DNA of 64,000 bases from Candidatus Micrarchaeia archaeon (lineage in GTDB: Archaea > Micrarchaeota > Micrarchaeia > Burarchaeales > JAVZCV01), in the NCBI GenBank assembly GCA_038874215.1, contig JAVZCV010000002.1, positions 53,624 to 117,623 of the forward strand, written 5' to 3'. Below are positions 36,680-47,054 of this stretch, piece by piece. Positions within the stretch are counted from its first letter, which is position 1. The number at the start of each line of letters is the position of its first letter. The notes beneath the pieces are model-generated. The model was given only the letters and a program-made list of their open reading frames with translations. It did not search any database and was not told the DNA's origin. A program made the position numbers and the translations under genes.

Positions 36680-37648
36680 ATGAAGAAGAATCTATTCGTT
36701 TTTACATTGCTTCTCCTGCCCCTCATTGTCAATGCGGGAAAGGTTGGCGTAGTTGTTGATGATGGAACAAGAGTGCTTACGAGATGCGTTAGTTTTAGCG
36801 GTCCTACAACACCCTTGCAAATTCTGCGCAATTCTGGCCTGAACATAGTAGTGCATGAAGACCCGAGCTGGGGCATCGCCCTCTGCAAGATAGGCAGTGT
36901 TGGCTGCCCTTCGGATAACTGTTTCAACTGCAATCCCCCCTACTACTGGGCTTTCTCAAGAATGGAAAACGGCGTTTGGGTGCATGCAACTGCGGGCGTA
37001 GCATGCTATAATGACCCGCCGAGCACTGGTCTTTGGGGAAAATGTCCTGATGAACCGAAGAACTCCTCCCCCATTATATACGATGGGGCAATAATTGGTT
37101 TCAAGTGGGTTGATTGGAATGCATGGCCTGCCCCACAACCACCTTTGTACAGCTTTGAAGAAATATGTCCCCCCGCTGTCAGCGAATCCTACTTTGAGGA
37201 TGCGCATCACTTCAACATGAGCGTTAATTTCACATGCGCTGGAGAACCCGCAAAAATAACTGTGCTTGAAGGCACCACGCCTATACAGTCCCCCAGTCTG
37301 CTGATTGAAAGCGATAAGTTCGGAATAATAAATGGTGCGTATGTGAAGTTGTTCAGAAAATCGGGATGGTGGGTGCTTGAGAAAGCGGGCGAAACCGACG
37401 AGAATGGAACCTTTGTTTTCACGCCAAAGAGCGGCATTTACACCATAGATGTGAGTAAAAGAGGCTTCATACCTACAAGCAAATTCATAGTTGTTGAAGA
37501 ATGCAACCTGAAACAACACGTACCAGAGCAACCGAGTAGCAGTGGCCAACTTGAAGTCGTAGGGCTTAAAAAATCAAAAAGAGAGGAAATAGACAAAGAA
37601 GTTATCGCGCAAATGCTCTCACTCGTTTTTCATTTCTTCCTGCGCTGA
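36680..37648 (+). CDS. Secreted hypothetical protein (DUF4430-like N-terminal domain plus beta-sandwich)
   Basis: Signal peptide; ALCKIGSVGCP..YW...GV..DG..GFKW pattern; TDENGTFVF. Confidence 0.6.
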   Translation: MKKNLFVFTLLLLPLIVNAGKVGVVVDDGTRVLTRCVSFSGPTTPLQILRNSGLNIVVHEDPSWGIALCKIGSVGCPSDNCFNCNPPYYWAFSRMENGVWVHATAGVACYNDPPSTGLWGKCPDEPKNSSPIIYDGAIIGFKWVDWNAWPAPQPPLYSFEEICPPAVSESYFEDAHHFNMSVNFTCAGEPAKITVLEGTTPIQSPSLLIESDKFGIINGAYVKLFRKSGWWVLEKAGETDENGTFVFTPKSGIYTIDVSKRGFIPTSKFIVVEECNLKQHVPEQPSSSGQLEVVGLKKSKREEIDKEVIAQMLSLVFHFFLR

Positions 37649-38881
37649 GTTAGCGTTTTCTCTCGTGGATACTATCATGTTTTCGGGCTGCCTGAAAATA
37701 TTTCCCCTTCTCACTGCAAGCATTATCTTGACTCCTTTTTCCTCTGCCAAATCAACAAGCCTCTGCGTTGCTATGCCATCCAGCACAACTGCATACGCAC
37801 TTTCAATCTCTGAAAGTTCCTTTACGAGATCGCGCACTGGTACCTCTCTCATAAGCGCCAGATTATTATCGTAAATCCTTGCCCTAAGTGTTGTTTCTAG
37901 CTCTTCCAGACTTCTTGTGAGCTCGGGCGGTATCCCCTCTATTTTTGTTGTCTCGGACGGCTGTTCCTCTGGTTGTCCTACTCTCTTTGGTTCAAACCTT
38001 CTTGAATTCTTGTCATTCCTAAACCGCAAATCTCTTCTTTCATCTCCCCTTATTTCTCTTACCGTCTCCTGCTCAACGGGTATCCTGTTCCTGAGGCATT
38101 TTATTATTTCCTTTCTGGTGAGCTCTTCAACTTCCTTCCCTTTCGGTGCCCTGACTATATAGTCTATATCTGCTGCTTGCAGAAGCTCCCGTAGTATTAT
38201 ATCCCCTCCCCTATCTCCGTCAAGAAACACTGTTATCTCTTTCTCCCTGCTTAGCTTAATGATTGATTCCGGTACGTTCGCACCGCCTATCGCAATTACG
38301 TTGTTTATTCCGTTTCTGAGCAGGTTGAGAACATCCGCTCTGCCCTCAACGACTATTATATTCTCGTAGGTATTTATCCCTGGCCCTGACGGCAACTTCT
38401 CGGGGCCGTATTCCGTTATTTCTGCTATTTTTACCTCCTGCCTCACGAGCTCTGATATCTCCTTACTTTCTGGTATTTCTTCTGAAACGAGCGCTTTTAG
38501 AAGCGTTTTCGCCCTCTCAACCACATTCTTTCTTTTCAAACTCCTCGTATCCTCAATCTTCTCAACCGCTATTTTTGCCTCGCAGGGACCAACGCGGTCA
38601 ACCGTTTCAAGGGCAGCGGCAAGTATGCTTGTTTCCACCATATCCAGCGAGGATGGAAGCGTTATTTTGCCTATGCTTCTACCACCCCGAACCTGCAAAT
38701 CAACTTCTATCCTTCCTATCCTACCATTCTTCTGCAATTCTCTAAGGTCAAGCTCGTCACCAAGCAGACCCTCGGTCTGCCCAAATATAGCACCAACCAC
38801 ATCGGGCTTTTCAACAAGACCGTTTATCTCAATATTCGCATATATCAGGTATTTTATGGTGTCTATGTATGTTTTTGCCAT
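37619..38881 (-). CDS. dnaG: Archaeal DnaG (TOPRIM; exosome-associated)
   Basis: EKPDVVGAIFGQTEGLLG, VVEGRADV, DGDRGG; GAGGTGA RBS. Confidence 0.97.
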   Translation of the reverse strand: MAKTYIDTIKYLIYANIEINGLVEKPDVVGAIFGQTEGLLGDELDLRELQKNGRIGRIEVDLQVRGGRSIGKITLPSSLDMVETSILAAALETVDRVGPCEAKIAVEKIEDTRSLKRKNVVERAKTLLKALVSEEIPESKEISELVRQEVKIAEITEYGPEKLPSGPGINTYENIIVVEGRADVLNLLRNGINNVIAIGGANVPESIIKLSREKEITVFLDGDRGGDIILRELLQAADIDYIVRAPKGKEVEELTRKEIIKCLRNRIPVEQETVREIRGDERRDLRFRNDKNSRRFEPKRVGQPEEQPSETTKIEGIPPELTRSLEELETTLRARIYDNNLALMREVPVRDLVKELSEIESAYAVVLDGIATQRLVDLAEEKGVKIMLAVRRGNIFRQPENMIVSTRENANSAQEEMKNE

Positions 38882-38891
38882 CAAAATCACC

Positions 38892-39344
38892 TCAAATATT
38901 TAAAGGCCCAAACCTACTCTGAAACTCTTCAAGGCTATGAAGTATATCCTCAAAAAAATTCAACCCGAGAATGTACTTCATATCTCTGCGCGTTGTGGTG
39001 TCAGCCTTAACACCGTACCCCACAAGCGCTTCTTTAAGTCTAACGCACATTTCACAACCACGTCTGTCAAAATCTGTGAGCAACAACACCTCCGTATATC
39101 TTTCAGAAATTTTTCTTGCAAAATCATCAGCACTCCCCCATATAGTTACTACCTTTCCTACACCTAGCATCTGAAGCGCCTCTTTATCTCTCTTCCCTTC
39201 CACCACAACTACACTCCGCCTTAACTTCTCAATCAACCTCTCAAGTTTTTTACGCTTGTAATCTAATACCCGTTCTCTCTTTGAACGCATCAGCATCAAC
39301 CCCAATATCAAGCAATTTTTTTCTTTTTCCAAATCCACGGACAA
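38892..39344 (-). CDS. Small TOPRIM-domain protein (true start probably downstream of the track start)
   Basis: VVVEGKRDKEAL, LLTDFDRRG. Confidence 0.85.
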   Translation of the reverse strand: MSVDLEKEKNCLILGLMLMRSKRERVLDYKRKKLERLIEKLRRSVVVVEGKRDKEALQMLGVGKVVTIWGSADDFARKISERYTEVLLLTDFDRRGCEMCVRLKEALVGYGVKADTTTRRDMKYILGLNFFEDILHSLEEFQSRFGPLNI

Positions 39345-39504
39345 TCCTGACCTTGCAAGCGAGCAATCTGCCTAACTCCCTGACGAGTTCTGCGTTTGCC
39401 CTATCCCTCTCGGGTTTTGACCTGACAAACGCCACAAGAACGTTCTTCTCTGCTTTCAAGCCAAATTCTGCAGAGTTTGGAACTACTTTCACCTCTACCA
39501 ACAC
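39250..39504 (-). CDS. DUF167/UPF0235 (YggU) family protein
   Basis: VKVVPNS, PERDRANAEL, IVRG..KRKK. Confidence 0.85.
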   Translation of the reverse strand: MLVEVKVVPNSAEFGLKAEKNVLVAFVRSKPERDRANAELVRELGRLLACKVRIVRGFGKRKKLLDIGVDADAFKERTGIRLQA

Positions 39505-39526
39505 ACAACCACATCAGAAAGAGTAG

Positions 39527-39595
39527 GATTGTGCTGTGCAATGTTGACTTAGGCTCACTGCTCGGCTATGCTCCCCCAGCCATCCTTTGCACAGC
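39527..39595 (-). ncRNA. H/ACA-like K-turn hairpin RNA with complementarity to the 23S rRNA H42-H44 region
   Basis: 9-bp stem GCUGUGCAA/UUGCACAGC followed directly by ACA; apical GA...GUGA K-turn; TTTATATT box 30 nt upstream; three 12-nt antisense segments. Confidence 0.65.
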
Positions 39596-39617: not shown

Positions 39618-39625
39618 AATATAAA
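39618..39625 (-). promoter_or_regulatory. TATA box for the hairpin RNA and/or DUF167-TOPRIM-dnaG
   Basis: TTTATATT begins 30 nt upstream of the first G of the stem. Confidence 0.5.
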
Positions 39626-39753: not shown

Positions 39754-40404
39754 ATGGAAGCCAAAACAATGCGTGGTGCTGTTGGTATCGGAACCCTGAT
39801 AATCTTCATAGCGATGGTCCTTGTGGCCGCAATCGCCGCAGCCGTTTTGATAAACGTTTCTGGCATACTGCAACAGAGGGCAATGACGACGGGTAAGGAA
39901 GCAATAGCACAGGTTTCATCAAACCTCATAGTGTTGAGTGTAACGGGCATAACGAACCAAAACAAAACAAATATTGATAATCTTACCATAACTCTGAGTG
40001 CCGCAGCGGGTGCAGGCAGACTAGACCTCGGTAAAGTTGTTTTGAAAGTAGGGAACGGCGATAACCTTACGGTACAGAAATACACAAGCACAAGCGGTGC
40101 TCTCACAGCAAACGGTGCAAACTTTACTGCGATAGCATTAAGAGACCCTTCAAATCTATTTACGCAGGAAACACCTGTTATTGATTCAGGCAGCCTGATT
40201 CAACTTACAGTTGTGCCGAGCAATGCTTCAGCATACGAAACTTTCAGTTGTGATCCTACAGTTAATCCAGGGGTTCAGTGCATAGTTCTTCCTCCACGTA
40301 GCCCCTTGCATATCGAGCTTATACCAGAACACGGTGCCGCAGTGGTAATTGACGTTGTGACACCCCCTACCTATTCTACAACCCAACAGCATCTCTACCC
40401 TTAA
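39754..40404 (+). CDS. flaB: Archaellin
   Basis: Class III signal RG|AVGIGTLIIFIAMVLVAAIAAAVLI..LQQRA..TG; TTATATAA box upstream. Confidence 0.93.
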   Translation: MEAKTMRGAVGIGTLIIFIAMVLVAAIAAAVLINVSGILQQRAMTTGKEAIAQVSSNLIVLSVTGITNQNKTNIDNLTITLSAAAGAGRLDLGKVVLKVGNGDNLTVQKYTSTSGALTANGANFTAIALRDPSNLFTQETPVIDSGSLIQLTVVPSNASAYETFSCDPTVNPGVQCIVLPPRSPLHIELIPEHGAAVVIDVVTPPTYSTTQQHLYP

Positions 40405-40888: not shown

Positions 40889-41797
40889 TTGAAGAAAACA
40901 TGTCCTGAATGCGGTGGAGATAAGCTAACGCGCGACTATGTGCGTGGCGAGCTCATATGCACTAATTGTGGTTTAGTGGTAGAGGAGGATATAGCTGACC
41001 AAGGTCCAGAGTGGCGTGCTTTTGATGCAGAGCAACGAGATACTCGCGCACGCGGCGGTGCTCCTATTAATTATATGAGACCGAACAAGGGCCTTGTTAC
41101 AGAAATAGACAAATACAACCGAGATATAAGGGGAGCCCGAATATCATCGGGTAAAAAGGAGCAGATGTACAGGCTTAGAAAATGGCACAAGAGGGCGAGC
41201 ATAGCCACTTCCATGGAGCGAAACCTTGCGATAGCGCTCAGCGAGCTCAGCCGCATGGCATCATATTTGGGCTTGGCGGAGGAGATAAGAGAATCCGCAG
41301 CGCTTCTTTACAGAAACTGCGTGAAGAAAGGGCTTGTTAAGGGCAGAACGATAGAGGTTGTAGTCGCAGCCGTCATATATATAATATGCAGAAAAAGAGG
41401 AGTGCCAAGAACGCTCAACGAGATATCAAAGATTGCGGGAATAGAGAAGAAGGAGATAGGGAGGGCATACCGCTACATTGTTCGGGAGCTTGACGTTGAT
41501 GTTCCGCTTGCAGACCCAACAAAACACATACCGAAGTTCGCCTCAATACTACGCCTTTCTGGCAAGGCTCAGGAAGAAGCACTTGAGATTTTGAAAAAGG
41601 CATCAAAGAAAGGACTCATTTCCGGAAGAGGCCCGACAGGGCTTGCCGCCGCAGCGATATACATAGCGAGCGTTATGACCGGAGAGCGAAGGACACAAAA
41701 AGAAGTTGCACGGGCAGCGGGCGTTACAGAAGTGACTATAAGGAATAGGTACAGGGAATTAAAGAAAGCCCTTAACCTTGATGTTGACCTCGTTTAG
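40889..41797 (+). CDS. tfb: Transcription initiation factor IIB
   Basis: CPECG..CTNCG zinc ribbon, GPEWRAF B-reader, two cyclin repeats, VTEVTIRNRY. Confidence 0.98.
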   Translation: MKKTCPECGGDKLTRDYVRGELICTNCGLVVEEDIADQGPEWRAFDAEQRDTRARGGAPINYMRPNKGLVTEIDKYNRDIRGARISSGKKEQMYRLRKWHKRASIATSMERNLAIALSELSRMASYLGLAEEIRESAALLYRNCVKKGLVKGRTIEVVVAAVIYIICRKRGVPRTLNEISKIAGIEKKEIGRAYRYIVRELDVDVPLADPTKHIPKFASILRLSGKAQEEALEILKKASKKGLISGRGPTGLAAAAIYIASVMTGERRTQKEVARAAGVTEVTIRNRYRELKKALNLDVDLV

Positions 41798-46937: not shown

Positions 46938-47054
46938 CGGTCAGCGGCCATAGGGGCGGGGAAACACCCGATCTCTTCCCGAACTCGGAAGTAAAGCCCG
47001 CCTACGATGTTGCCTGTACTGCCGTCTGGCGGGAAGGCGCATTGCTGCTGGCCG
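46938..47054 (+). rRNA. rrf: 5S rRNA (stand-alone)
   Basis: GCGGCCATAG..ACACCCGATCTCTTCCCGAACTCGGAAGTAAAGCCC..GTACTG..GGGAA; terminal helix CGGTCAGCGGC/GCTGCTGGCCG; TATA-like AAATATAAAT upstream. Confidence 0.95.

Follow-up and report, generated by a model that had tools for sequence, protein, structure and literature searches.

A conserved single-hairpin RNA of Micrarchaeia with box H/ACA architecture, probably a guide, for which no canonical target was found

We analyzed a 64,000-nucleotide (nt) stretch of the genome of a Candidatus Micrarchaeia archaeon of the Burarchaeales (assembly GCA_038874215.1, contig JAVZCV010000002.1, positions 53,624 to 117,623), here called the window, and in particular a predicted 66-nt RNA encoded on its minus strand at 39595..39530, which starts with the first G of the lower stem and ends with the final A of an ACA box. 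This RNA is probably a single-hairpin box H/ACA small RNA (sRNA) that forms the RNA subunit of a Cbf5-Nop10-L7Ae particle and serves as a guide in the standard mode. It is a new H/ACA family that is not in Rfam, and it is filed as an orphan member because a search for a canonical target found none. Studies of RNA-guided pseudouridylation cover a handful of archaea in culture, and a literature search, which did not cover supplementary tables, found no paper on H/ACA RNAs of Micrarchaeota or DPANN.

Read on the minus strand, the element runs GCUGUGCAA-AGGAUGG-CUGGGG-GA-GC-AUAGCCGA-GC-AGU-GA-G-CCUAAG-UCAACA-UUGCACAGC-ACA (Table 1). The same strand and sequence had been proposed in a short note made from the DNA letters alone (the original prediction), and re-reading the sequence confirmed them. 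The layout described there, a minus-strand RNA with a 9-bp lower stem, an ACA box, a kink turn (K-turn) and its own TATA box, is borne out by the sequence, the alignment and the covariation. The internal loop that would form the guide pocket has 7 nt on its 5' side and 6 nt on its 3' side, lengths within the 5-9 nt usual for H/ACA guide strands, the upper stem has 6 bp including one G.A mismatch, and the K-turn signature consists of GA (39573-72) with AGU-GA (39559-55). In archaeal H/ACA RNAs the ACA box lies 14-16 nt from the top of the pocket. Here the distance is 15 nt (6 + 9), or 16 nt if the invariant C-G pair is counted as part of the guide, and PMC7075261 reports H/ACA function at spacings of up to 17 nt. 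A descriptor scan of the whole host genome (1.13 Mb in 38 contigs, 91% complete) returned nine H/ACA-like candidates, and only 39595..39530 has a G+C-rich perfect stem in non-coding-looking sequence. The other eight look coding; the descriptor was strict, and hairpins with shorter stems or K-loops would escape it.

The fold of the single sequence is only mildly better than that of shuffled sequences (z = -2.38; 5 of 200 shuffles equal), and it is conservation that makes the case for a real structure. When 40 relatives were searched at the DNA level, the element was recovered from 19 other genomes of the order with E <= 1.5e-6. In the alignment of these 20 sequences the TATA block, the lower stem, the pocket strands, the GA dinucleotides of the K-turn and the ACA are conserved, and the upper stem and apical loop vary. 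Overall, 90.3% of the cells assigned to pairs are paired, changes on both sides occur at 5 of 17 pairs, and the covariation score was reached by none of 500 shuffles; sliding the 3' partners as a control reduced pairing to 24-43%. The lower stem, P1, is paired in 100% of cells across 16 distinct rows, with one A-U to U-A double change within the order and many compensated variants class-wide. The upper stem, P2, has 74% of its helix cells paired, with changes on both sides at three of its six pairs. Column pair 1-68 in P1 is G-U in 11 of the 16 distinct rows and G-U pairs are also found in P2; such pairs are compatible only with a minus-strand transcript.

A covariance model built from the 20 sequences of the order (R1, 66 positions) was applied to 151 genomes of the class, one of which (G098) is unpublished and is counted in the tallies only. 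Exactly one copy each was found in 67 of the 151 genomes. Within the order, 27 of the 28 other genomes carry the element, and the single miss is a genome that is 77% complete. Class-wide, P1 and P2 vary with compensation, and the two pocket heptamers, GGAUGGC and GUCAACA, are near-invariant. The first varies in one of 57 class-wide model matches, to AGAUGGC; the second reads GUCGACA in four genomes of family f14 and GACAACA in one genome, G048.

The proteins expected of an H/ACA particle are encoded by the host. Its Cbf5 is complete, with DKCLD, TruB_N and PUA domains (411 bits for the NCBIfam equivalog, cut-off 242), and Nop10 and L7Ae were matched with 59.5 and 106.8 bits. A cross-tabulation, in which related genomes are not independent, found a Cbf5 match in 65 of the 66 other sRNA-positive genomes. 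Families f13 (0 of 21) and f17 (0 of 13) have neither the sRNA nor Cbf5, and families f12 and f15 have Cbf5 with no R1 match. As an observation in its own right, the 21 f13 and 13 f17 genomes in which Cbf5 was not found are mostly more than 90% complete, a pattern that suggests the loss of RNA-guided pseudouridylation from these lineages.

In the standard mode, a TATA promoter of its own would drive synthesis of the RNA as a minus-strand transcript. L7Ae would bind the K-turn, and the PUA domain of Cbf5 would hold the ACA box together with the 9-bp lower stem. GGAUGGC and GUCAACA would then pair with a conserved RNA, most likely 23S ribosomal RNA (rRNA), in a non-canonical fashion that places a uridine in the active site of Cbf5.

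Known H/ACA RNAs offer two close points of comparison. A search of Rfam at gathering thresholds found nothing at the locus, its sole match in the window being a 5S rRNA; with relaxed thresholds there was a single match, Pab160 (RF02796), which aligned end to end over model positions 1-68 with all elements in register. Like our RNA, Pab160/Pf9 of Pyrococcus has a 9-bp lower stem, pocket strands of 7 and 6 nt, an upper stem, a GA + N3-GA K-turn and an ACA. However, the likeness in sequence is negligible (16.8 bits, E = 5.2) and the guide strands are unrelated. A canonical 16S target of Pab160 was shown in vitro, according to PMC2377435, whereas none was found for the RNA studied here. The H/ACA sRNA of Nanoarchaeum equitans, as presented in PMC3491384, resembles ours as a single H/ACA RNA in a reduced, DPANN-type genome, with its own box A promoter and K-turn bulges. 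Compared by description, the two differ in that the N. equitans RNA is a 159-nt double hairpin established by RNA sequencing (same source), whereas ours has 66 nt in one hairpin and has been seen in DNA only.

Several results weigh against a standard-mode guide; they concern the RNA itself, the protein partners and the search for a target. The match to RF02796 lies far below the gathering threshold of 47.4 bits. In-register pairing between the two pocket strands is possible at five of seven positions, and RNAalifold closes the pocket; such mutual pairing fits hairpin-stem antisense, a closed helix or chance (~7% by arithmetic). More distant families have AUA, UCA or other triplets in place of the ACA box. 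Gar1 was not found in the host with PF04410, a model that detected only three of four archaeal controls.

For the target search, a canonical site was defined as the reverse complement of the 3' strand, U-N, and the reverse complement of the 5' strand, with 6+6 and 7+7 pairing and G-U pairs allowed. Host 16S and 23S rRNA hold no usable site of this kind, the best U-N sites being mismatched beside the pocket, and the rRNAs of five relatives hold no conserved one. A search for the 16-nt 7+UN+7 pattern, again with G-U pairs, gave no match in the host genome; the pattern occurs in 39 of the 151 genomes, in unrelated strings and at the chance rate. The search was extended beyond mature rRNA with the same outcome. 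The pre-rRNA spacer and the operon flanks contain no canonical site better than chance, and none was found in 5S rRNA, the signal recognition particle RNA, RNase P RNA or the 16 tRNAs found by ARAGORN in this 91% complete genome. Across the whole host genome there are 97 and 52 loose canonical matches, none within a stable RNA. When recurrent target strings were sought in 31 genomes with no mismatches, 20 of the 31 had a match, and the perfect strings lie inside open reading frames (ORFs) of one genus; with two mismatches, the best 150 of more than 1000 matches were uninformative. No targets spanning rRNA insertion junctions were seen, and relatives without insertions are also without a target.

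Two further candidates were considered and set aside. A half-site, UGUUGA-UU, in the 16S insertion was rejected as it is not conserved in relatives. An ancestral or partner-organism helix 43 matching both pocket strands was dropped because the perfect helix 43 matches (the best 80 of at least 120, in genome contigs) are all bacterial. The original prediction was right that the GTPase-associated centre offers no standard U-N pocket geometry, and the scans found no canonical target elsewhere, which it had named as the mark of an ordinary guide.

A non-canonical scan that allowed 0-11 unpaired target bases brought out three sites. At the peptidyl-transferase stretch, UGUCGGC-UUAG-GUCAUCC, 13 of 14 positions pair, and this is the top bipartite match in the 23S rRNA of the host and of G019 and G038. 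Helix 43, GGUAGGC-UUAGAAGCA-GCCAUCC, pairs at 12 of 14 positions, and the bipartite scan also gave the A-loop hairpin, GGUUGG-GUUGU-UCAUCC. The peptidyl-transferase stretch is weakly favored as the leading candidate target, with helix 43 and the A-loop hairpin as alternatives. We take this stretch to be nominal E. coli 2504-2521, in a landmark-based numbering that is a few bases off the record coordinates. The f14 variant GUCGACA converts the sole mismatch at this site into a G-C pair, giving 7/7 with UGUCGGC. In the host alone, the 3' strand of P2, CCUAAG, has added complementarity to 23S GGCUUAG. PMC11121408 equates 2826 with 2457, 2870 with 2501 and 2921 with 2552, a constant offset of 369. 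From this offset and the alignment of the host to the E. coli record, the U after GUCGGC, the first in the pocket, would be the equivalent of yeast 25S pseudouridine 2880, which is guided by snR34; snR34 and the present RNA have no sequence relationship.

Departures from the canonical geometry are documented among archaeal guides. Extra unpaired target bases still give pseudouridine with Pab19, an unpaired UVUN does so with stem-loop 2 of Haloferax sR-h45, and Sulfolobus islandicus sR148 is active with pairing to the 3' guide only, in duplexes down to 6 bp (PMC2377435, PMC7075261 and PMC11077068). In these sources all three RNAs have mapped RNA-dependent pseudouridines, whereas the candidate sites considered here leave 4-9 bases unpaired.

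None of the best non-canonical sites rises above chance level. In the two rRNAs, 154 of 1000 shuffled guide pairs did at least as well as the peptidyl-transferase site. A 5S rRNA site that scores equally in the host was rejected as it is not conserved in 26 relatives, and such matches therefore arise easily. Variation at the peptidyl-transferase site is not followed by the guide: the guide is the same in family f10, where the site has UAUCGGC, and in family f22, where it has GACAUCC or GAUAUCC, the GACAACA guide of G048 faces an unaltered site, and the candidate uridine (U2511) is C in G019 and G007, both of which carry the sRNA. When guide variants were compared with 23S variation, neither the peptidyl-transferase stretch nor helix 43 showed a compensating pattern. 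Apart from the guide, the base 5' of UCGGC (nominal E. coli G2505, usually invariant) is A in f10, f15, f18 and several other families, and f13 and part of f17 read AUAUGGGC or AUAUAGGC at this stretch.

A possible alternative, clearly less probable than a standard-mode guide, is an H/ACA particle that works without the two-base pocket. Its class-invariant, mutually complementary pocket strands would invade a conserved 23S hairpin or junction (helix 43 of the GTPase-associated centre or the helix 89/90 stretch of the peptidyl-transferase centre) with a loop of 4-9 nt in the pocket. During assembly of the large subunit the particle would keep this part of 23S open, or it would modify the first uridine of the loop; it would be made together with the operon of DnaG, which is exosome-associated. 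The eukaryotic snR30/U17 is a non-modifying H/ACA small nucleolar RNA whose pocket pairs with two rRNA stretches flanking a hairpin. The shared idea is that of a pocket astride a hairpin.

The original prediction had proposed a more specific, non-modifying RNA, antisense to helices 42-44 of 23S rRNA in the manner of snR30 and acting as a folding chaperone or ribosome regulator. The three plus-strand 12-mers on which it built are present where it placed them, each is identical at 11 of 12 positions to the GTPase-centre stretch of the E. coli 23S record, and two such 11/12 windows against E. coli occurred in none of 5000 shuffles. The antisense claim was E. coli-based, however, and the 23S rRNA of the host itself (contig C14:3563-6811, minus strand) is matched exactly by one segment only. 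This is CAGCCATCCTTT, at large-subunit rRNA (LSU) position 1254, which corresponds to the 3' strand of helix 43 and its flank. ATGTTGACTTAG matches at 9 of 12 positions at LSU 1239, and the third segment, GCTCACTGCTCG, has no match with up to three mismatches in the GTPase-centre domain of host 23S, which has AGCGGACCAGCCGAG. The near-perfect pairing expected with helices 42-44 of the host thus holds for the 3' strand of helix 43 and fails for the other two segments. Conservation tells the same story: 13 of the 20 elements hold an 11/12 window against host-type sequence, always in the second segment, and the first and third are kept at this level in the host alone and in none of its 19 relatives. 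In the first segment the last four bases fall in the variable upper stem, the third segment is antisense to the K-turn and apical stem, parts that vary freely in relatives, and class-wide only the 7-nt pocket strands are kept.

What can be sustained of this proposal is an invasion of the helix 43 stem (GGUAGGC / GCCAUCC) by the pocket strands with a 9-nt loop in the pocket, which we consider unlikely. By Watson-Crick pairing alone, GGAUGGC matches the helix 43 3' strand GCCAUCC in full, and the match extends to 12 nt in the host and in genus g17; an 11/12 window against the 62-nt GTPase-centre stretch of the host was found in only 17 of 5000 shuffles; self-complementary pocket strands are expected of a hairpin-stem antisense; helix 43 is nearly invariant across the class; and this reading agrees with the lack of a U-N target. 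Against these points, the conserved complementarity is 7/7 for GGAUGGC and only 5/7 for the 3' strand with host GGUAGGC, with an internal A.A, and the pair of values is within the range of shuffled guides somewhere in the rRNAs. By arithmetic, 5.4 kb of rRNA would contain a single 7-mer complement by chance in about 1 of 3 cases. Helix 43 reads GCCACCC in several sRNA-positive genomes and GCCAUCA in G010 with the guide the same, families without the sRNA and without Cbf5 have an identical helix 43, and in family f14 a gene insertion of ~52 nt interrupts the 3' strand of helix 43. Reduced to this form, the proposal of a non-modifying chaperone keeps a low probability. Independently of the sRNA, the f14 insertion is a hairpin of ~52 nt within the helix 43 3' strand, between GCCA and UCC, in the 23S genes of G038 and G048; unless spliced out, it would break the GTPase-associated centre.

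A main role in cis, as the 5' leader of the downstream DUF167-Toprim-DnaG operon, is similarly improbable for the hairpin; an example would be an L7Ae-binding K-turn that controls translation or message stability. Gene order was examined at 20 loci, 16 from the order including the host and four from two other families of the class, and at all 20 the hairpin lies upstream of DnaG on the same strand. The original prediction had listed the DUF167, Toprim and DnaG genes as possible partners, and all three recur downstream of the element. The distance from the ACA box to the start of DUF167 is ~25-37 nt, which leaves no room for a separate promoter, and there is no second TATA box; the RNA is therefore probably co-transcribed with, or processed from, the operon transcript. 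It would run on into the DUF167-Toprim-DnaG transcript or be cut from its 5' end. A leader would also agree with the conserved CUACUC block after the ACA and with a pocket that can be closed into a near-continuous helix. However, a leader needs neither a 9-bp stem with an immediately following ACA nor an H/ACA-like spacing of 15 nt. The next gene switches, being DUF167 at 12 of the 20 loci and Toprim at the others, with the RNA constant; the presence of the hairpin follows that of Cbf5; and co-transcription is compatible with a trans-acting role. The CUACUC(U/A)U block is found in most of the 20 aligned relatives, and it may signal processing or termination or belong to the leader of the downstream operon.

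A functional plus strand, which would imitate the 23S GTPase-associated centre and bind uL11 or P0, is very improbable. In its favor are the three 11/12 likenesses to E. coli. Against it, its segments run in the order 1, 3, 2, unlike the rRNA, the G-U pairs of the stems become C.A mismatches, the TATA and ACA boxes suit the minus strand, and host 23S is matched by one segment only.

Taking the RNA as a probable H/ACA guide, the family supplies a usable model, with 66 positions and one copy in each of 67 of 151 genomes, and a clean case of an orphan guide, with a pocket conserved class-wide that fits no canonical target. The target, once found, would reveal either a new pocket geometry that is tolerated or a non-modifying role of an archaeal H/ACA RNA. 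Should the RNA turn out to be an ordinary guide whose 23S site pairs weakly, annotation would simply gain one more H/ACA family.

Table 1. Features of the predicted sRNA and its surroundings (window coordinates)
Feature	Coordinates	Strand	Remarks
TATA box TTTATATT	39618..39625	-	Centred ~26 nt 5' of the first G of the RNA; TATA-like block equally spaced in 20 aligned homologues
Predicted box H/ACA sRNA	39530..39595	-	Model R1 score 83.3 bits
Lower stem P1, 5' strand GCUGUGCAA	39587..39595	-	9/9 pairs with 39541-39533
5' pocket strand (A)GGAUGG	39580..39586	-	With C39579 forms heptamer GGAUGGC; invariant in 20/20
Upper stem P2, 5' strand CUGGGG	39574..39579	-	Pairs with 39553-39548
K-turn and apical stem-loop: GA, GC-AUAGCCGA-GC, AGU-GA-G	39554..39573	-	GA and N3-GA columns invariant; same layout as in the Rfam Pab160 consensus
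Upper stem P2, 3' strand CCUAAG	39548..39553	-	Variable in relatives
3' pocket strand UCAACA	39542..39547	-	With G39548 forms heptamer GUCAACA; invariant in 20/20
Lower stem P1, 3' strand UUGCACAGC	39533..39541	-	From pairing and covariation analysis
ACA box	39530..39532	-	Abuts P1; 15 nt from the base of P2; 20/20 in the order
CUACUC(U/A)U block	39505-39529	-	After the ACA box
DUF167 gene	39250..39504	-	Pfam DUF167, E = 8.9e-9; downstream in 12/20 loci
Toprim-domain protein, 150 aa	38892..39344	-	PRK04017-like, weakly like RNase M5; downstream in 17/20 loci
Archaeal DnaG	37619..38890	-	NCBIfam NF003108, 507 bits against a cut-off of 300; downstream, same strand, 20/20 loci
Archaellin gene	39754-40404	+	Divergent from the sRNA promoter
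TFB (TFIIB) gene	40889-41797	+	Slightly beyond the archaellin gene
5S rRNA gene	46940-47053	+	Stand-alone

The rRNA and tRNA genes of the host show further peculiarities. The stand-alone 5S rRNA gene in the window is on a different contig from the 16S-23S operon. The 23S gene (3249 nt) has eight to ten inserted hairpins of 33-49 nt whose loops are rich in A/U. Most, if not all, of five relatives lack them, and they resemble mini-introns or lineage-specific expansion hairpins. The 16S gene (C14:7164-9272, 2109 nt) contains an insertion of ~515 nt after GGUUAAGUCCGG. This insertion is common to four relatives at ~60% identity and holds an ORF of 153 aa with no Pfam match. The 16 tRNA genes that ARAGORN reported are the only ones it found in the host genome. 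It predicted introns in 12 of them, including one of 436 nt in tRNA-Cys, and it named one 'tRNA-Stop(tta)'; the genome probably has many intron-containing or split tRNAs that ARAGORN handles poorly.

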